Below are positions 3,459-34,722 of a stretch of DNA of 34,722 nt, piece after piece; position 1 is the stretch's first letter, and every line of letters begins with the position of its first letter. Origin of the DNA: a virus. A program made the translations under genes and the position numbers. The notes beneath the pieces are model-generated. The model was not told the origin of the DNA. It did no database searches and saw only the letters and a list, made by a program, of their open reading frames with translations. The stretch covers positions 1 through 34,722 of the IMG/VR virus record IMGVR_UViG_3300028025_000010. One strand, given 5' to 3'.

Positions 3459-5936
3459 CTATCGTGCGTTAGCGTATTTAAAGGGGTTTTCGGCAAATGC
3501 CATGTATATGTAATTTCCACCATTATTGTTGTAACCAACATTGGCAGTTCCAGTTCTAATTTTAAATCCGTTGCTTACAAAATCTAATAAATAAGCAGAG
3601 TCAGATGTTTCAGCAGCAGACAAATTAGCCCACAATCTTGTATTCATAGCGTTATAAGTATTGCGAGCAGAATCATATAATAGCCAATCTGCATTACTTT
3701 CTGAAGCAGTTGCTTTTATCATTAAAAATCTAGGTCTAAACCCAGTAAACACAAAAGGACCATCAGCAGAGCCATTACCTGTGTATGAGCCAAATGCAGA
3801 GTATCCAGCGACTTGTGCAAAGCAGTAGGTAACGTAGTTGTTACCCGTCTTGTTCATCTCATCTGCGGCAGAAACCCCTACCGTAAATGTGCTTGAACCG
3901 TATGCTTGGTAGAAGGTAGATGATGTTCCTTTTGCTGCTGTTGATTGCAAAACCAAATAATCATTTATTCCAAAACCAGACATACCTCCAATACCAACAA
4001 CCCAACTTGAAGCATTTGTTCTGCTTTTTGTAATGAGAATGCTAGGAGCAACACCCAAACCATGACCTATGGTTGCGGCATTTGTTGAATTGCCAGCCCA
4101 AGTCACAATCGAAAACCCAGAGGTAGTGTTTGCGCTTACGGTTGAGGTTATGCTACCCGCAGTATTAGTTACGCCAGCACCGTTGGCTTTCCAGTTCCAT
4201 GCTACATAGGTATCCGCACTTGTGTTTAACTGCGCTAATGCACCAACAGTAAAGCCGTCTGAACCAAATGCTGTTAAACCTGTGGTTTCGGTAGTTTCTG
4301 CGGTTGTTGTATTACTTTCTAACTGTTTTTGAACGCCACGAACTGCATCATAAAGTCCATGGTCAGCCGCAGCATTGCGTTCTTTAATCCATGTCCAATC
4401 AGGTTGGAATCCTAGCCCTGTAATAGATTGGCTAGAACCTGTACCTGTGTACAAAGCAATATTCATATTCTTACTAGCTAATGTAGATGCAGTAGCACCA
4501 ATCGTAGGAGTAGGTAAGTTAAATGTGTTTAGTGCTACAAAGCCTGTTGGTGGAGTGTAGGAGAATGGGCGTTGACCGAAGTTAATTGATGGATTTTGTC
4601 CATAAGCCCATAAGTACGGGAATACTGTTCCAGATACTGATGTTACAGTTGGGTTTGTTCCTGCACTTGGATTACCAGTAGTTCCACCAGAAGAGTCATA
4701 CCATGTATTGTTAATACCAAACCAAGCATTTCCAGTGCTTGTATCCACAAAACATTGCAATATTGCTGTTGCTGTTACATTTGTATTATCGGTAATATTG
4801 GTTGTAGTTCCTTGATTAAATATTCTTCTAGCCCTAATTGAAGAATCATTCAATACAATTCCCCAAGAACCTGCTCCACCCCAACTACTTGCGTAAGATG
4901 AGGTTGCAATACCCCATGCGGTTTGGGTTGAGCTTGAGGTAATACTAGATGTCAAAACTGCTTCATAGTAAAACTTACCAGAAGTTAACGCCATACTAGC
5001 TCTTACTGATGCTCCACCACTTGTCGCAGAAGCAGTAAATGTTAGATTTCCGTTTGTAACAGTTGTAGTTGCTGTATTGTAAAAAATATCTAATGGATTT
5101 AATACGCAATAGTTAGCCGCAGTAGCACTTGTCAGCGTAGGCACATCGGTCATGCTGTCATAGGTAGTGCCAGCAGTTAGGCTGATGTTGTTTGTAGCAA
5201 AGTAGTTTGCGTTACCTGAGAAGTCTTTTCCTAATCCCACATTGGATGATGTAGTCAGAGCAGAGTTATCGGTAAATGGTAAATAGAATCCATTAGTGCC
5301 ATATGTTCCTACGAACTTCTTAGGAATCCATACACCTGTGCTTGTAGATGTTTCACCGAATGATGATGGGGTTAATTGCTGACCATCAATAAAATGAGTT
5401 TCAGCCAAATAACCATCAAACCATTGATTATCAGAGTATTCTTCTCTGCCAATTGCATGGGGTACTAAAGCATTTACAGCTATATCTAAGTTTTGGGCTG
5501 GGTAACTTGCCGTTCCAAAAGAAGTTATTTCAACGCCATTAACATAAAATTTAATTCTGTTAGTTGAAGTGGCTTGCGTTGTGTCTACTGCTAGAACAAT
5601 ATGATACCAAGCAGATGGGTCACGATAAACTGGCGTGGTGTTAAGTTGCATTTGTGTAACACTAGCCCAGTTTAAAGCCGCTAATTGGTCATTAGCAAAA
5701 CCAAAATAAAACTGTACAGTTGAGCCATTACTTGCAGCAAACAAACTTTGAAAAGCTGAGCCTAAAGTACCTCGTTTGACCCAGCTACTCCAAGTCCAAG
5801 TTCTACGGTTACCTGAAACTGATGGTGTTCTGCTCAAATAAGCAGAAGCACTAGACCGAAAGCGTAGGGAGTTGGTTAGGAAGTAACCACCTTGACCAGA
5901 TGCACCAGCAAGGATATTAGAACCGATAACTGACAT
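3459..5936 (-). CDS. Large tail fibre / receptor-binding protein with LamG (ConA-like lectin) and SPRY-like domains.
   Basis: LRFRSSASAYLSRTP..RTWTWSSWVKR..WYHIVLAVD..IKFYVNGV is LamG-like. SGKFYYEAVL...AWGIAT is SPRY-like. The GFQPDWTWIKER..HGLYDAVRG and GFRPRFLMIKA..DWLLYDSARN modules are repeated. Confidence 0.65.
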   Translation of the reverse strand: MSVIGSNILAGASGQGGYFLTNSLRFRSSASAYLSRTPSVSGNRRTWTWSSWVKRGTLGSAFQSLFAASNGSTVQFYFGFANDQLAALNWASVTQMQLNTTPVYRDPSAWYHIVLAVDTTQATSTNRIKFYVNGVEITSFGTASYPAQNLDIAVNALVPHAIGREEYSDNQWFDGYLAETHFIDGQQLTPSSFGETSTSTGVWIPKKFVGTYGTNGFYLPFTDNSALTTSSNVGLGKDFSGNANYFATNNISLTAGTTYDSMTDVPTLTSATAANYCVLNPLDIFYNTATTTVTNGNLTFTASATSGGASVRASMALTSGKFYYEAVLTSSITSSSTQTAWGIATSSYASSWGGAGSWGIVLNDSSIRARRIFNQGTTTNITDNTNVTATAILQCFVDTSTGNAWFGINNTWYDSSGGTTGNPSAGTNPTVTSVSGTVFPYLWAYGQNPSINFGQRPFSYTPPTGFVALNTFNLPTPTIGATASTLASKNMNIALYTGTGSSQSITGLGFQPDWTWIKERNAAADHGLYDAVRGVQKQLESNTTTAETTETTGLTAFGSDGFTVGALAQLNTSADTYVAWNWKANGAGVTNTAGSITSTVSANTTSGFSIVTWAGNSTNAATIGHGLGVAPSILITKSRTNASSWVVGIGGMSGFGINDYLVLQSTAAKGTSSTFYQAYGSSTFTVGVSAADEMNKTGNNYVTYCFAQVAGYSAFGSYTGNGSADGPFVFTGFRPRFLMIKATASESNADWLLYDSARNTYNAMNTRLWANLSAAETSDSAYLLDFVSNGFKIRTGTANVGYNNNGGNYIYMAFAENPFKYANAR

Positions 5937-28920: not shown

Positions 28921-29117
28921 TCTCCCTTATTATTTTTAGCCCATTGTTCCCCATATAGGATTAATAGGTCTTTATCTATCGTATGGTCTGATAAATACTT
29001 TCTCCATTTTGTCAGACCCCAAACTGCTCTCCAAATTAACAACTGTCTTACAGCGCATTGAACTCTATACTCATCCGAATAAGAGTGCTTGTGTTTCAAC
29101 TCTACTTCCTGAGTCAT
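28902..29117 (-). CDS. Hypothetical protein.
   Basis: 71-aa W/K-rich ORF. It overlaps the upstream gene by 47 nt and the downstream gene by 19 nt. Confidence 0.4.
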   Translation of the reverse strand: MTQEVELKHKHSYSDEYRVQCAVRQLLIWRAVWGLTKWRKYLSDHTIDKDLLILYGEQWAKNNKGEWGKWI

Positions 29118-29727
29118 ACTTCTTGGAATCTCCTTTCGGGTAAGGTTCTATATTATATTTAAGTAAACTTTTTAGCAATTTCTTATGTTGCTTTGTTCCA
29201 TGAAAATATATGTATCTGTGCTTTCTACTTCTTTCTGCGTAGTAAAAGTCATCACCATATTTTTCTTTAATGCTTTCTAATGTCATTCCATCGGACAAGG
29301 TTTTGCTATGCTTATGCTCTAAACCTTTTACAGTCCAATCAACTCTGTTTGCAGATAGACCAGTATATAAAAAGTTTGTAGCTTGGTATACATAGCCAAC
29401 ATGACCTTGACCAGTATCAGCGTAAGAAACCACTATAGTTGGTTTTGGTAAAAGTTTTATAGAATTAGATACAAGAAAACTAGACTGATTTTTAGTGTTA
29501 TCTTGCAAACAAAGGCGATTTAATTCCAAAACTTTGTCTGACCACTCTTTGCCACAGATTCCCATACATAGCGATGGGCTTGCTGGTATCCCATAAGTAA
29601 CTACACCAACAAGATGCTCGTCATCATATAAACCAAAAGCGTACATAATCTGCGGTATTCGCTTTGCATAATGTTTTTGCAATAACCAAGAATAAGTCTC
29701 ATCATTCTTAATCGGCAAAACCTTCAC
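29071..29727 (-). CDS. Mom-like GNAT-fold DNA-modification protein (adenine methylcarbamoylation family), putative.
   Basis: LLQKHYAKRIPQIMYAFGLYDDEHLVGVVTYGIPASP, LELNRLCL..NTKNQSSFLVS and VVSYADTGQGHVGYVYQATNFLYTG match my recollection of the Mom-family signature. Confidence 0.45.
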   Translation of the reverse strand: MKVLPIKNDETYSWLLQKHYAKRIPQIMYAFGLYDDEHLVGVVTYGIPASPSLCMGICGKEWSDKVLELNRLCLQDNTKNQSSFLVSNSIKLLPKPTIVVSYADTGQGHVGYVYQATNFLYTGLSANRVDWTVKGLEHKHSKTLSDGMTLESIKEKYGDDFYYAERSRKHRYIYFHGTKQHKKLLKSLLKYNIEPYPKGDSKKYDSGSRVETQALLFG

Positions 29728-30687: not shown

Positions 30688-30888
30688 TCAGATTTGATAA
30701 TCATTTTTTCCCCTTTCTAAGGCTTGTGTTATCTGTTGGGAAAGATTCTCCCAATATTGCTTACAACTGTTATCGTTTCTTGGACTGCCTACAAAGTATG
30801 ACTGATATGGTGATGGTTTGGCAAGATACCTGTAACAATTATTTTTTTTACTACATTGGTGGTCTAAACACATAGTGATGTCTGGCAT
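30688..30888 (-). CDS. Small Cys-containing early protein.
   Basis: MPDITMCLDHQCSKKNNCYRYLAKPSPYQSY. The C..C....C.RY pattern recurs in small phage proteins. It is the first gene after a promoter-bearing gap. Confidence 0.5.
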   Translation of the reverse strand: MPDITMCLDHQCSKKNNCYRYLAKPSPYQSYFVGSPRNDNSCKQYWENLSQQITQALERGKNDYQI

Positions 30889-30951
30889 ATCTTTACCTAT
30901 AAGTTAACATATTTGTTACTTTAAATACCTTTAAGTTTATATATTTGTTAC

Positions 30952-30981
30952 ATTATGTAGATGCTTATGTAATATAGTCAA
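30952..30981 (-). promoter_or_regulatory. Sigma70-type promoter TTGACT-N18-CATAAT.
   Basis: On the minus strand the -35 is at 30981-30976 and the -10 at 30957-30952, 64 nt upstream of ATG 30888. An ATATTTGTTAC direct repeat (30909, 30941) follows it. Confidence 0.5.
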
Positions 30982-31237
30982 CATTTTGTTTTATTAAAAA
31001 TTCATGCACTTTTAGACAATACTCTACTTTAGGTGATATGCCTTATCAACCTGACCCATCTATACAAGACTAGTCCTTCCTAAGATAATGTTCAATCATT
31101 TGTAGACTTATATATCACCCTTGATCTACAAATTTGTGCAGTACCCATTTAAGTCTGCGAGGCTTGCCATCCTAGTAGTGAGCCTATCTTTTCTTCCACG
31201 CTGCCGATATAAGCACTATGTTTCGCCTGGAGTGCGA

Positions 31238-31361
31238 GCAGAAATAGAAAAACCCCATAAGGTAGCTCTAAGTTGATCCCACTTAACAAAAGAATCCACG
31301 ACTTTTGTTAAATGCTCAAAGCTACCCTATAGGGTCTTGTGGATTACTAAACAGGGATCAA
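31238..31361 (-). ncRNA. Highly structured RNA element (four helices, two of them pseudoknot-type) ending in a U-tract. It is either an elaborate terminator or a stable 3'-UTR/sRNA.
   Basis: Complementary pairs: 31253-67/31320-34 (15 bp, with both mismatches becoming G-U only on the minus strand), 31283-92/31302-11 (10 bp), 31273-80/31354-61 (8 bp), and hairpin loop 31293-99/31339-45 (7 bp). UUUUUCUAUUU follows. Confidence 0.55.
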
Positions 31362-31381
31362 TCTGCTGACTAAATTATAAA

Positions 31382-31693
31382 CTAAAACTCAAACTCTTTA
31401 AAGTCGTACCTCCCATTTGGTTTCTTAAACCAGCCGATAACGATAATTCGCCATTTGGATCTTAGCAGTTCTACAAAATAGTCGCTTTCTTGGATTTTCT
31501 TTATTCTGGAGGACATATTGCTTTTGGATGTCATTTGTATTCCGAGTGTTTCTTCGTTTCCAATAGCCACCATGTCGAGTATGCCAAACATATCTTTTTT
31601 TCGTTTTGTAAAAGAGTTGTAGGATTCGACCACTTCGCATTTATACCCCCTAGACTCGAATAGAGCCATTGTGCGCTGATTGTAGTTAGGCAA
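31382..31693 (-). CDS. Small PD-(D/E)XK-like nuclease (Hjc/resolvase-like), putative.
   Basis: LFESRGYKCEVVE...KKDMFGILDMVAIGNEETLGIQMTSKS is compatible with a D...(E/Q)xK/T nuclease core. 103 aa. Confidence 0.35.
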   Translation of the reverse strand: MPNYNQRTMALFESRGYKCEVVESYNSFTKRKKDMFGILDMVAIGNEETLGIQMTSKSNMSSRIKKIQESDYFVELLRSKWRIIVIGWFKKPNGRYDFKEFEF

Positions 31694-32036: not shown

Positions 32037-32228
32037 ATGCAAAAATATCAATGGATGGCAACAGCAGAAAAATGTGGAAATGTTTGGAAAGTAGGAGTTC
32101 AAACAGAAAATGGTTGTGTGTCTTTTAGTAAAAAAGTATATGCAACAAAAGACCAAGCATTAGTTGTTGCAAACAAAATCTACAAAGAAGAAGAATTTTC
32201 TGTTTCTGATTTTGAAATAGATTGTTAA
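32037..32228 (+). CDS. Hypothetical early protein.
   Basis: 63-aa ORF, the first rightward gene. AAGGGA lies 8 nt upstream of the ATG. Confidence 0.55.
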   Translation: MQKYQWMATAEKCGNVWKVGVQTENGCVSFSKKVYATKDQALVVANKIYKEEEFSVSDFEIDC

Positions 32229-32237
32229 TATTTAATA

Positions 32238-32253
32238 TCCCCCTTCGGGGGGA
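32238..32253 (+). other. GC hairpin with a UUCG tetraloop between early genes.
   Basis: UCCCCC-UUCG-GGGGGA: 6 bp with a cUUCGg tetraloop. No U-tract follows. Confidence 0.5.
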
Positions 32254-32265
32254 ACTGGAGATACT

Positions 32266-32379
32266 ATGAAAGACTTTAAAGGCGAATGGAAAGATGTATT
32301 TTGGGGAGCTGTGGCAGCAATCCTTATGCTTGCACCAGCGATGTTTGTGTATGTTTGGAAAACAGGGGGTGTATCGTGA
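32266..32379 (+). CDS. 37-aa single-TM micro-protein (not in the ORF track).
   Basis: GGAG lies 8 nt upstream. The product is MKDFKGEWKDVFWGAVAAILMLAPAMFVYVWKTGGVS. Its stop overlaps the next ATG (TGATG). Confidence 0.45.
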   Translation: MKDFKGEWKDVFWGAVAAILMLAPAMFVYVWKTGGVS

Positions 32380-32669
32380 TGAAATCGTATGATAGTTGGT
32401 TAGAAGATGGTGTAGACCAAGGTTCTCTACAAGATCAACAGGAATATGTGTGGACTACCTATATGAAACAAGGTAAGCCATGCGATCCAATGGATTTGGA
32501 TAACTTCCAAGAGTATCTTGCAGATGCAACTGCTGACTACAAAGGTGCGGAAAAGTGGGAAAACCTAAGACAGTATGCTGATAAAGGTGAATGGGAAAAG
32601 TTTGGTCGGGCTATTTATTTTTTAGTCCACGACCATATTGAAGATAAATTGATTGCGGAGGAAGAATAA
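32379..32669 (+). CDS. Hypothetical acidic protein (internal start of the 127-aa track ORF).
   Basis: MKSYDSWLEDGVDQ... The start is coupled to the upstream micro-ORF. The 5' extension from 32286 would overlap that ORF. Confidence 0.5.
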   Translation: MKSYDSWLEDGVDQGSLQDQQEYVWTTYMKQGKPCDPMDLDNFQEYLADATADYKGAEKWENLRQYADKGEWEKFGRAIYFLVHDHIEDKLIAEEE

Positions 32670-33202
32670 TGTCTAAATATTTAGAACTTAGGAATGTAGA
32701 TGTATCGGATAAGATCGAGAAGAAGAATGGCTTGTCTTATCTGTCTTGGGCATGGGCTGTAGACACATTGCTACAACACGATCCACAAGCTACTTGGTCG
32801 TATGGTCAGCCTGTAGTGTTTGGTGAGACTGTGATGGTGTTCTGTACAGTAAATGCCTTTGGTAAGTCGATGACTGCACAACTGCCGGTAATGGACTATC
32901 GCAATAAGGCAGTACCGAATCCCGATGCGTTTGCTGTTAATACTGCAATGCAAAGATGCCTGGCTAAAGCAATTGCTCTACATGGTCTCGGTTTATCTCT
33001 TTATGTCGGAGAGGATTTATGGGATGATATAGAGGTAGATTCTACAAAGTTTGTAGAAAAGATATTAGGTTCTCAGGATATCCCAGAACTAAAGGTGAAC
33101 TTTGCCCAAGCGTTCAAGGAAGTGTCTAAGGACAAAGAGGCAATGAAGAAGGTAAACGATGCCAAAGAAAAAAGAAAGGCAGAACTGAGTGAGACTAGCT
33201 GA
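32669..33202 (+). CDS. Sak / Rad52-like single-strand annealing protein (DUF1071 family).
   Basis: KKNGLSYLSWAWAVDTLLQHDPQATWSYG...MQRCLAKAIALHGLGLSLYVGEDL is the hallmark of Sak-type annealases. Confidence 0.75.
   Translation: MSKYLELRNVDVSDKIEKKNGLSYLSWAWAVDTLLQHDPQATWSYGQPVVFGETVMVFCTVNAFGKSMTAQLPVMDYRNKAVPNPDAFAVNTAMQRCLAKAIALHGLGLSLYVGEDLWDDIEVDSTKFVEKILGSQDIPELKVNFAQAFKEVSKDKEAMKKVNDAKEKRKAELSETS
33040..33058. repeat. Perfect 19-bp palindrome built from the TTCTACAAA control-region motif, inside the annealase gene.
   Basis: TTCTACAAA-G-TTTGTAGAA at 33040-33058. Confidence 0.9.
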
Positions 33203-33386
33203 TGTGCAGCCAGACAATGTGTGCTTCGAGTGCGGTAAGGCTTGGGGTACACATCCACTAAAGAGTTCGGAGAACCACAGATCATGGATAGACCTATGCG
33301 ATGTATGTTTAAAGCTCACAGCCGTAGTAGATGTTTCGGAATATGGTTATATGAAGGAAAATTGGGATGGAAAAAAAGTGGTGTAG
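33189..33386 (+). CDS. Small Zn-ribbon-like protein (GTG start).
   Basis: It carries the CFEC...CDVC cysteine pairs. The GTG at 33189 overlaps the end of the annealase gene. Confidence 0.4.
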   Translation: MRLADVQPDNVCFECGKAWGTHPLKSSENHRSWIDLCDVCLKLTAVVDVSEYGYMKENWDGKKVV

Positions 33387-33516
33387 TTCTTGTCAGGCTG
33401 ATAGACCAAAAGCTGGTTTTAAGCTGGTAGCAGCAGGAAATCGGATTCGCCCAGTTATGAGATGGAAATGCGAACATTGTTTAAAACGAGAGTCGGAGAG
33501 AAAATATGGCAAATAA
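33367..33516 (+). CDS. 49-aa Zn-ribbon protein (not in the ORF track).
   Basis: MEKKWCSSCQADRPKAGFKLVAAGNRIRPVMRWKCEHCLKRESERKYGK, with CxxC...CxxC. It overlaps both neighbouring genes by 11-20 nt. Confidence 0.45.
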   Translation: MEKKWCSSCQADRPKAGFKLVAAGNRIRPVMRWKCEHCLKRESERKYGK

Positions 33517-33760
33517 GTTTTTTCAAAAAGCAAGGCAAGTAGCAAGAGCCTTAGATGATGGTAATTATATTTATACCCCTAGTTCTACAGATATTACGAT
33601 TCGGTGGCGCAAAGTCTATGGGTATGTGCCTGCAAGCGAGCAAGCAAAGTATCAAAAGAAATGGGCTGAGTTTCGCGCACTAACAGCGAGAACTTTAGAG
33701 AATGTAGATGTGCCAGACATACCAGGAGTTGTGCAATGGAAAAAGTGGCAAAAATCCTAG
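33506..33760 (+). CDS. Hypothetical protein.
   Basis: 84-aa ORF with no recognised motif. Confidence 0.5.
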   Translation: MANKFFQKARQVARALDDGNYIYTPSSTDITIRWRKVYGYVPASEQAKYQKKWAEFRALTARTLENVDVPDIPGVVQWKKWQKS

Positions 33761-33852
33761 TAGAGATTGGTGTTTACATTTTGTTACCTTTTGCGATAAT
33801 AAAGGTGTCTTGGGAATTGGCAACTTCTTGGATTGAGGAATTAATAAAATGA
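33736..33852 (+). CDS. 38-aa hydrophobic micro-protein (not in the ORF track).
   Basis: MEKVAKILVEIGVYILLPFAIIKVSWELATSWIEELIK. The stop overlaps the next ATG as ATGA. Confidence 0.35.
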   Translation: MEKVAKILVEIGVYILLPFAIIKVSWELATSWIEELIK

Positions 33853-34073
33853 GAAACAAGCATTGTATGGAGGCTTTCTATAGAACCCTAAAGGAGATAG
33901 ACATTCCTACAGGGCAGTCTATAATCTGCGAGCATTTCTTTGCTTCGGGTTGGGATGCTGCCATCGATGCCTTGTCTCTCGCATACCAAAGGCAGTTTGA
34001 ACATGATGGAGTTGATACACAGCTTATTCGCAGAGACCCCCAAGAACCTATTGCCGATGACGATAAAGAATGA
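33849..34073 (+). CDS. Hypothetical protein.
   Basis: 74-aa ORF, coupled to the upstream gene. Confidence 0.5.
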   Translation: MRNKHCMEAFYRTLKEIDIPTGQSIICEHFFASGWDAAIDALSLAYQRQFEHDGVDTQLIRRDPQEPIADDDKE

Positions 34074-34251
34074 TTGGTATCCTGTATGCTTTCATTCCAA
34101 ATTAGATTACAAAAAGTGGCAGTATTACAGGAAGGGGTCAGGAGAGAGAGTTACAGTCTGTGATGACTGTAGCGATGAGTACCAAAAGAAAATGAAAGGG
34201 GAAAATCGGTGTTTTATGGCAGAGACCATGTACCGATCAAAATATGTCTGA
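34057..34251 (+). CDS. Small Cys-containing protein (internal start of the 103-aa track ORF).
   Basis: MTIKNDWYPVCFHS...VTVCDDCSDEY. ATG 34057 keeps the overlap with the upstream gene to 17 nt. Confidence 0.4.
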   Translation: MTIKNDWYPVCFHSKLDYKKWQYYRKGSGERVTVCDDCSDEYQKKMKGENRCFMAETMYRSKYV

Positions 34252-34411
34252 ACCAGTATCTCAAGCAGTAATGACAGTAACCGAGGTTGCTCCCTTTCAA
34301 TTTTCTATTGAAATTGTCGGATCAGATTTATCTTTAGAAGTTTCACAGATTATGGTAAAGTTTCTGAATGACTGCTTACAGCAGATTCATGCGGATCAAA
34401 AAATCCATTGA
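34244..34411 (+). CDS. 55-aa hypothetical protein (not in the ORF track).
   Basis: MSEPVSQAVMTVTEVAPFQFSIEIVGSDLSLEVSQIMVKFLNDCLQQIHADQKIH. It fills the gap before the exonuclease gene. Confidence 0.4.
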   Translation: MSEPVSQAVMTVTEVAPFQFSIEIVGSDLSLEVSQIMVKFLNDCLQQIHADQKIH

Positions 34412-34421
34412 AAGGGATTGT

Positions 34422-34722
34422 ATGGAACAAAGAACAGAAGAATGGTTTAGTGCCAGGCTAGGCAAGGTAACTGCTAGTCGGGTCGCAGATGTCTTAGCCA
34501 AGATAAAGTCTGGTGAGTCTGCAAGTCGCAAAAACTACAAGATGGAGCTAGTAGTTCAGCGATTGACAGGCAAGCCACAAGAGTCGTTTACCAATGCTGC
34601 AATGGAATGGGGTACAGAGCAAGAGCCATTCGCTAGGATGGCATACGAGGCTCATACAGGCACTTTCGTAAAGGAGGAGGGGTTCGTAGACCATCCCACG
34701 ATAGAAGGCTTTGGATGCTCTC
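34422..34722 (+). CDS. YqaJ-like recombination exonuclease, N-terminal part (continues at 1..437 via the terminal repeat).
   Basis: ATG 34422 is preceded by AAAGGGA. The product starts MEQRTEEWFSARLGKVTASRVADVL, the YqaJ N-terminal signature. The frame matches the ORF at 36..437. Confidence 0.8.
   Translation, partial: MEQRTEEWFSARLGKVTASRVADVLAKIKSGESASRKNYKMELVVQRLTGKPQESFTNAAMEWGTEQEPFARMAYEAHTGTFVKEEGFVDHPTIEGFGCS
34603..34722. repeat. Second copy of the 120-bp terminal direct repeat.
   Basis: Identical to 1..120. Confidence 0.95.

Follow-up and report, generated by a model that had tools for sequence, protein, structure and literature searches.

A previously unclassified family of structured phage RNAs in which the 5' leader pairs with the bulge and the apical loop of a predicted terminator hairpin

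The question raised by this locus is what kind of RNA, if any, is encoded at positions 31238–31361 of a viral DNA stretch of 34,722 nucleotides (IMG/VR virus record IMGVR_UViG_3300028025_000010, positions 1 to 34,722; hereafter the window), where an initial annotation made from the sequence alone had placed an element of about 110 nt with several helices, two pseudoknots and a U-tract. The element is a previously unclassified family of structured phage RNA, read from the minus strand. The two pseudoknot-type crossing interactions and the U-tract end were found on that strand as described, and every helix is backed by comparative data. Both pseudoknot helices as well as the stems are proven by covariation.

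Direct reading of the sequence confirmed all the complementary segments. The pair of 15-nt segments (31253–31267 with 31320–31334) is matched at 13 of the 15 positions, and its two mismatches, C-A and A-C on the plus strand, are G-U and U-G pairs when read on the minus strand. The hairpin 31283–31292/31302–31311 is a perfect 10 bp, the pair 31273–31280/31354–31361 a perfect 8 bp, and the hairpin loop 31293–31299 is complementary to 31339–31345 over a perfect 7 bp. UUUUUCUAUUUCUGC comes directly after the stem on the minus strand. Folding of the minus strand of 31230–31381, which the initial annotation had proposed as a check, gave −55.1 kcal/mol with a z-score of −6.9, and none of the 200 shuffled sequences folded as well; the plus strand of the same region gave −39 kcal/mol and a z-score of −3.7. 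The fold also refined the description: the 15-bp and the 10-bp helices both belong to one long hairpin of 33 bp (20 bp, a 3'-side bulge of 7 nt, and 13 bp), with a stability ranging from −51 to −55 kcal/mol. The remark that this is far more structure than a plain terminator needs was upheld.

Relatives were collected from IMG/VR in two ways. The protein of 103 amino acids (aa) encoded upstream of the element was used as a query and gave 68 loci (L001–L068, the protein-anchored set), in most of which a homologous element is present directly 3' of the gene. An 18-nt pattern of the tail gave at least 120 further viral contigs (loci from L069 onward). The collected relatives comprise at least 171 distinct 150-mers from phage contigs. 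As the tail was the search pattern for the loci from L069 onward, its invariance there is partly due to ascertainment; the tail is conserved also in the protein-anchored set. An early search with an exact 33-mer found no relatives, because these differ in their stem sequence. Pairs were counted in an alignment (A1) of 97 distinct relatives, and the architecture was measured on 110 parsed relatives.

For the whole structure, 93.1% of the cells were paired in the 97 relatives as compared to 80.2% in the shuffles, none of the 500 shuffles reaching the observed value, and 37–51% were paired when the partners were slid as a control. The lower stem had 97.8% of its cells paired and double changes at 9 of its 20 pairs, the upper stem 97.9% and double changes at 8 of 13 pairs. 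The helix between the leader and the bulge (B'/B) was paired in 97% of the cells and showed double changes at all of its seven pairs; at one of these positions AU was counted 32 times, CG 29, GC 25, UG 3 and UA 2 times.

The helix between the leader and the apical loop (D'/D) was paired only to about 60% in the alignment columns, because MAFFT had misaligned this length-variable stretch, and it was tested instead by comparing self with non-self combinations. A Watson-Crick run of at least 5 nt between the leader and its own loop was present in 97 of the 110 elements, whereas the runs with the loops of other members were mostly 3–4 nt. With anchored registers, all seven D'/D pairs were formed in 64% with the own loop versus 4% with the loop of another member. 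The compensatory changes that the initial annotation proposed to seek in related phages were thereby found in the stems and in both crossing helices. Furthermore, five or six G-U pairs per molecule occur only on the minus strand, and the structure is therefore that of a minus-strand RNA. Local alternative hairpins within the two strands of the lower stem were pairable and showed no double changes. Nor were there any in a pairable 5' hairpin (GCAG with CUGU), which had only one-sided G-U/G-C variation.

The lower stem is 20 bp long in 80 of the 110 parsed relatives, the bulge 7 nt in 103, and the upper stem 13 bp in 58 and 12–16 bp in 109, and the leader-loop helix has 7–8 bp in 52. In a simple intramolecular model, the bulge helix would plausibly form a three-way junction, the upper stem and the loop helix (13 + 7 bp) lying alongside the 20-bp lower stem, with a linker of 4 nt from D' to the stem base. 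The geometry is a matter of plausibility and not evidence, because the helix lengths hardly vary within the family.

A terminator hairpin with both its bulge and its loop held by its own 5' leader did not match any described family in the searches made. The Rfam scan of the window at the gathering score gave no match, and a scan of positions 30800–31500 (701 nt) at E ≤ 10 produced only noise (e.g. trpB and miRNA models). No tRNA or tmRNA genes were found in the window. BLAST searches against 50,697 phage records, made with the region, with the element alone and with the Betaproteobacteria-1 RNA of one relative, gave no match to a cultured phage. A genome scan with the tail pattern resulted in 74 matches, most of them due to chance, and the true elements among them were on a few short contigs of metagenome-assembled genomes with inconsistent taxonomic labels; the host hint "Betaproteobacteria" comes only from the name of the Rfam family RF02932. 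What emerges is a new, abundant family of structured RNAs in uncultured freshwater phages, with at least 171 variants and covariation in both pseudoknot helices.

Conservation starts at a −10 box and stops exactly after UCUGC, which makes the element a discrete unit, whose start is predicted at 31366–31367 (Table 1). At the 3' end GGGG closes the stem and UUUUUCUAUUU comes next, an arrangement kept in all the relatives, so shaped (GGGG-UUUUU) that the element is predicted to end in an intrinsic terminator. A simple terminator scan missed the hairpin because the loop plus the bulge exceeds the limits of the scan.

At the other end, a −10-like hexamer precedes the invariant 5' GCAGA in every upstream context. 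The hexamer has the form TAnnnT and lies 6–7 nt before GCAGA in 90 of the 94 distinct upstream contexts (11% expected by chance), TATACT (51) and TATAAT (30) being the forms counted, and the spacer between the box and GCAGA is the most variable stretch (diversity 0.59). In the window, TTTAAA-17-TATAAT (31402–31374) was the best match of the promoter scan, with 10 of the 12 consensus positions. The −35 region of the relatives is weak, the best matches at 16–18 nt having mostly 3–4 of the 6 positions. GCAGA is nearly invariant (diversity 0.012) and was absent from all the search patterns. It is pairable either with CUGU/CUGY (31351–31354) in a 5' hairpin or with the 3' UCUGC (31238–31242), and these options give no covariation signal because both are invariant. 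Extension of the GCAGA/UCUGC pairing by one flanking pair was marginal (47/75 vs 40.3, p ~0.03), and the positions beyond were unpaired. In L333 and L355, two distant relatives, the bulge complement lies in the loop of a different 5' hairpin, which favours the 5'-hairpin option. No conserved antisense promoter was seen by eye on the plus strand, and the only plus-strand candidate of the promoter scan (31061–31089) sits in the exchangeable downstream module.

The element can no longer be taken as a mere appendage of the gene upstream of it, as it has its own conserved −10 box and is found also after at least two unrelated sets of upstream genes. With its own −10 box and a module constantly following it, it is therefore a promoter-proximal leader or small RNA rather than an element of a 3' untranslated region. 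Of the roles suggested in the initial annotation, that of a nuclease-resistant end or of a stable or processed small RNA may apply.

Table 1. Features of the element and its flanks in the window, listed in the direction of the minus strand.
Feature	Positions	Strand	Basis
−35-like hexamer TTTAAA, weak, not conserved across contexts	31397..31402	−	promoter scan
−10 box TATAAT of the element's promoter	31374..31379	−	promoter scan and conserved spacing
Predicted transcription start (A31367 or G31366) and invariant 5' GCAGA	31362..31367	−	spacing from the −10 box
B', leader segment UUGAUCC, pairs with the bulge	31355..31361	−	7/7 pairs compensatory, 97% of cells paired
CUGU, possible 3' side of a 5'-terminal hairpin presenting B' in its loop	31351..31354	−	100% pairable with GCAG
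D', leader segment AAUCCAC, pairs with the apical loop	31339..31345	−	self vs non-self tests
Lower stem, 5' strand, 20 nt	31315..31334	−	fold, 97.8% paired, 9/20 double changes
Upper stem, 5' strand, 13 nt	31302..31314	−	fold, 97.9% paired, 8/13 double changes
Apical loop UCGUGGAUU, 9 nt; D (GUGGAUU) is 31293–31299	31293..31301	−	complementarity to D'
Upper stem, 3' strand	31280..31292	−	fold and covariation
Bulge B (GGAUCAA), 7 nt, 3' side	31273..31279	−	pairs with B'; 7 nt in 103/110 relatives
Lower stem, 3' strand, ends GGGG	31253..31272	−	fold and covariation
U-tract and conserved tail UUUUUCUAUUUCUGC, tail of the predicted intrinsic terminator	31238..31252	−	marks the 3' edge of the conserved module
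Downstream module, 'family 1'	31010..31237	−	separate exchangeable unit, conserved

The kissing helices evolve at about twice the rate of the stems and yet stay complementary. Diversity is 0.42–0.43 in B'/B and 0.19 in the stems, and where two elements share the same 66-nt stems, the bulge is different in 63% of such pairs and the loop in 36%. The 97 elements carry 71 different combinations of 23 bulge types with 52 loop types, the number of distinct loop types being 52–58 depending on the count. Many of the changes in B'/B are transversion-type swaps that are impossible via G-U, and yet only about 3% of the cells are unpaired. The D'..D cassette is nested inside B'..B, so the two can be exchanged independently. 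The pattern is in line with existing types being reassorted or with selection favouring new specificities. Two contigs contain two copies of the element: IMGVR_UViG_3300047557_000594 (L103, L112) with different bulge types and nearly identical loops, and IMGVR_UViG_3300044633_000120 (L006, L023, L143), in which one of the copies is a variant without the leader-loop pairing. Such contigs may be concatemers or mixed-strain assemblies and are uninformative.

The element is always followed immediately 3' by a structured non-coding module, and these modules belong to at least five families. In the family 1 module of the window, 15 of the 26 pairs given by RNAalifold were compensatory across 39 relatives, the z-score of the single-sequence fold was only −0.7, and no Rfam match was found; the module is probably another unclassified structured RNA, and polymerase probably gets to it by reading through the element. 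In some relatives the same slot, immediately 3' of the element, is occupied by Betaproteobacteria-1 (RF02932; L001 3459–3580, L044 3471–3593 and L070 6464–6589, 95–107 bits), which in L001 begins 3 nt after UCUGC (106.8 bits). Betaproteobacteria-1 and the element are distinct RNAs; the Rfam model does not include the element and gave no match in the window. At least three further unclassified module families fill the slot in other contigs. In L001, an open reading frame (ORF) resembling HNH endonucleases, with Cys/His motifs recognized by eye, is inserted at ~3709–4110 and separates the Betaproteobacteria-1 RNA from the promoter block downstream of it.

Betaproteobacteria-1 was found in 59 distinct contexts in viral contigs, 24 of them with the element upstream. 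In L052, L314, L289, L363 and L285 the same −10 box is located directly before Betaproteobacteria-1, after the same upstream genes. Because the promoter can thus drive Betaproteobacteria-1 without the element, the latter is an optional module between the promoter and the downstream non-coding RNA (ncRNA). Other Betaproteobacteria-1 contexts have dissimilar 5' modules built on the same plan of −10 box, leader, long bulged hairpin and U-tract (L274, L290/L305, L343, L355, L362, L266 and L340). The leader was complementary to the bulge or the loop in seven of the nine scorable modules of this kind (p ≤ 0.05 vs shuffled leaders), mostly over 7–9 nt (6 nt in L266; in L340 seen by eye only). Leader-to-terminator pairing is thus a recurring design in this slot, and its presence in unrelated modules points to a general regulatory principle. 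Betaproteobacteria-1, so far an orphan Rfam motif, gains its first genomic logic: it has a conserved early-region promoter and often lies behind an exchangeable attenuator-like module.

As a whole, these observations are best explained by an attenuating leader that is also a terminated small RNA, with the leader contacts setting termination or stability, an explanation that we hold with belief and doubt in equal measure. The element is situated downstream of its promoter and ahead of another structured ncRNA, within the early region extending from cro to the replication genes. It would yield a terminated small RNA of ~120 nt and act as an attenuating leader, RNA polymerase having to read through it to make the downstream RNA. 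The leader-bulge and leader-loop helices would form as the hairpin emerges, giving a compact body with a three-way junction, and the leader contacts would set how often the terminator is completed, how long the RNA survives, or both, the effect being conceivable in either direction. On a more speculative note, a preformed leader-loop helix only 4 nt from the stem base could keep the last base pairs from closing within the RNA exit channel. The fast-changing helices may double as specificity determinants that prevent cross-reaction between related co-infecting phages, and would then constitute a natural library of orthogonal RNA-RNA pairs.

Several points weigh against the attenuating leader. 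The start site, the 3' end, the efficiency of termination and the read-through are all predicted; the −35 region, weak as it is, lacks conservation, and transcription from the cro operon upstream may also run into the element. The pairing partners of the leader are the bulge and the loop and not a stem strand, which leaves no classical anti-terminator competition, and the effect of the kissing on termination is a steric and kinetic argument only. In the full-length molecule intramolecular pairing should outcompete any action in trans unless the RNA is processed, and the fast change of the kissing helices could represent neutral compensatory drift at sites where only pairing matters. Exact searches of the window found no second copies of the leader targets, self vs non-self tests with 7-mers within 2 kb on both strands showed no enrichment, and no complementarity to the 300-nt downstream module was found; recognition therefore appears to be self-contained. 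Neither an integrase nor a CI-type repressor was found among the ORFs scanned, which weakens a version of the explanation based on prophage immunity.

A bolder extension, which we regard as rather unlikely, is that the kissing helices are an RNA identity code: transcripts of the locus would recognize their own type, by way of a processed hairpin or by homo-oligomerization, and so control the replication-associated ncRNA. If true, this would mean an RNA-based incompatibility or exclusion system in lytic freshwater phages, and the modules in which a leader kisses its own terminator upstream of Betaproteobacteria-1 would represent a general, undescribed class of attenuators.

The element might also be a purely structural, hyper-stable end without switching or specificity, i.e. 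a tR1-like terminator of a short early transcript of the cro and Hjc-like genes, an exonuclease-resistant cap or a 5' stabilizer. The good anatomy of the terminator, the very stable hairpin (−51 to −55 kcal/mol), the position directly after the upstream genes and the lack of competition between leader pairing and stem are all in line with such a role, as are the 5'-terminal hairpin and the plausible compact geometry in which 13 bp plus 7 bp equal the 20-bp lower stem. Like lambda tR1 and other Rho-independent terminators, the element has a G+C-rich stem base followed by UUUUU, and like tR1 it comes right after a cro-like gene in the early rightward operon. It differs from tR1 in its 33-bp hairpin with a 7-nt bulge and two covarying leader contacts, and in having its own promoter and a conserved 10-nt tail past the U-run. 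A structural end leaves unexplained the conserved −10 box at a fixed distance, the relatives that use the same promoter without the element, and the kissing helices diversifying much faster than the stems at 97% pairing; moreover, a 33-bp hairpin blocks 3' exonucleases unaided. We consider this possible role fairly unlikely.

A somewhat smaller likelihood is given to a trans-acting specificity RNA of the type of P4 CI, P1 c4 or the plasmid counter-transcripts, in which a processed hairpin would kiss nascent leaders, either its own or those of a co-infecting relative, and set termination for copy control, exclusion or incompatibility. There are two short recognition segments (loop and bulge) with matching upstream targets, as in a1/b1-c4 and seqA-CI, the locus is in the early region upstream of the replication genes, and the recognition helices are hypervariable, stay complementary and reassort. 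The parallels with the P4 immunity leader (seqA-CI RNA-seqC; precedent summarized in PMC4825925) and with P1/P7 c4 (a1/b1, a2/b2) extend to a non-coding leader RNA in a regulatory or replication-control region of a phage, to short segments of a structured RNA being complementary to segments just upstream in the same transcript, to a link between pairing and transcription termination (predicted for the element), and to compensatory changes in these segments between related phages. B' and D', located upstream of the hairpin and covarying with bulge and loop, correspond to the upstream copies (a1/b1, seqA), by analogy only. In the element, unlike in P4 and P1, the partners are the bulge and the loop of the terminator hairpin itself, no downstream target corresponding to a2/b2 or seqC was found within 2 kb or in the 300-nt downstream module, and lysogeny genes were not found among the ORFs scanned, these including no integrase or repressor. 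The covariance model of Rfam C4 (RF01695) did not match, at the gathering score or at E ≤ 10 in the 701 nt, and neither did IsrK. Action in trans is further disfavoured because pairing in cis should dominate unless the RNA is processed, with no known processing site; the one two-element contig that differs in bulge type only is uninformative.

The plan of the attenuating leader can also be likened to IsrK of the Gifsy-1 prophage, where one phage promoter gives rise to a short terminated small RNA and to a read-through isoform extending into downstream RNA and genes, read-through and processing together yield another stable RNA downstream, and IsrK acts on orf45/anrP translation through alternative structures (PMC4825925). 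For the element the short terminated RNA and the read-through are predicted, and unlike in IsrK its complementarity is internal and not aimed at the downstream module. In the plasmid kissing-loop systems (ColE1 RNA I/II, the pT181 attenuator and the IncB/IncI-alpha pseudoknot), likewise, 7-nt helices mediated by loops are present and confer specificity, the loop of a hairpin is paired to a distant part of its own leader, the locus is upstream of replication functions, and loops diversify between incompatibility types. The element differs from these in that no conserved antisense promoter was seen by eye, its distal partner is 5' of the hairpin and not at a ribosome-binding site, and the regulated product appears to be another ncRNA. 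The element does not pass for a member of the closest known systems, P4 CI/c4, IsrK and the plasmid kissing systems, with no covariance-model match and no downstream target found within 2 kb.

Covariation is blind to whether pairing takes place in cis or in trans, and the same signal might thus arise from intermolecular pairing, the RNA forming head-to-tail dimers or rings as a scaffold. Such dimers and rings are formed by the packaging RNA (pRNA) of phi29 and, as recently found, also by large ornate bacterial RNAs. With two independent complementary pairs in each molecule, closed oligomers could form, and the helix sequences are phage-specific; the pRNA, too, is a phage RNA of ~120 nt with a bulge-type segment and a hairpin loop in covarying, phage-specific Watson-Crick contacts. 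We nevertheless find oligomers improbable: the intramolecular fold is geometrically self-consistent with short conserved linkers, and there is no known partner machinery. The contacts of the pRNA are intermolecular, unlike in the model of the element, and it is part of the packaging motor of protein-primed podoviruses, whereas the element is in the early region of a phage with an ordinary large terminase. A pRNA-like role in packaging is unexpected because the terminase and the portal of this phage are ordinary, the genes found being those of a terminase large subunit and of a portal of the SU10 type.

It is very improbable that the element is a processing signal for RNase III like those of the T7 early region or lambda sib, with a single cut parting the upstream mRNA from the downstream RNA. 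The 20-bp lower stem (two turns) with an asymmetric 3'-side bulge and an upper stem, situated between transcription units of an early operon, recalls T7 R1.1-type sites with their lower stem and asymmetric internal loop. Such a signal leaves the leader pairings, the promoter and the U-tract unexplained, and pairing of the bulge with the leader would abolish the internal loop.

The riboswitch-like and ribozyme-like folds of the initial annotation, and with them DNA-level elements (cruciform, origin or single-strand initiation signal), are hardly credible despite the complex pseudoknotted fold, the locus near replication genes and a plus-strand helix order mimicking the nested double pseudoknot of the hepatitis delta virus (HDV) ribozyme, since the Rfam scan proposed there matched no family even at E ≤ 10, the minus-strand G-U pairs and the U-tract argue for a minus-strand RNA, the alternative hairpins lack covariation, and no ligand pocket or catalytic core is seen, the unpaired linkers and loops being variable and the invariant bases lying in helices around the junction. 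HDV-like, twister and other self-cleaving ribozymes were rejected as candidates also because helices of 20, 13, 7 and 7 bp are unlike those of HDV, and the HDV-like helix order is found only on the plus strand, which has no G-U support.

The genes around the element occur in two main arrangements. In one of them, a 77-aa helix-turn-helix gene, also counted as Cro-like, ends just before the element (86 loci); in the other, which is that of the window, the element is preceded by a Cro-like gene of 65 aa (45 loci) and by the 103-aa gene (46 loci). Both have divergently transcribed recombination genes, and a DnaD-like replication-protein gene ~1.3 kb downstream (99 loci). The initial annotation placed the element downstream of an early nuclease gene. 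The position holds, and the label of nuclease rests on a predicted fold only: the 103-aa ORF (31382–31693, minus strand) had no sequence match in Pfam, PHROG or PDB, and its AlphaFold model (pLDDT confidence score 83) was most similar to archaeal Hjc Holliday-junction resolvases (TM similarity score 0.5–0.6). The 134 homologues found are all unnamed metagenomic proteins.

The window probably represents a genome of ~35 kb that is nearly complete and circularly permuted. A partial YqaJ-like recombinase ORF at 36–437 on the plus strand appears to continue the plus-strand operon from the end of the window (32037–34722), and a Mom-like gene is present at 29071–29727. Downstream of the family 1 module, at 30895–30981 on the minus strand, two direct repeats GTAACAAATAT(A/G)T.AAC come after a promoter-like TTGACT-18-CATAAT. 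The block is probably an operator-controlled promoter of the next operon, and it is common to relatives with a different upstream module. In L026 (2825–2989) and L059 (3330–3494) the element studied here is replaced by a different structured element (CCCCAGTATTTTTAGGCGGGGTA ... TTGGGGTTTTCCTTTTGCAGC), which lies ~90 and ~20 nt, respectively, past the stop codon of the 103-aa gene.

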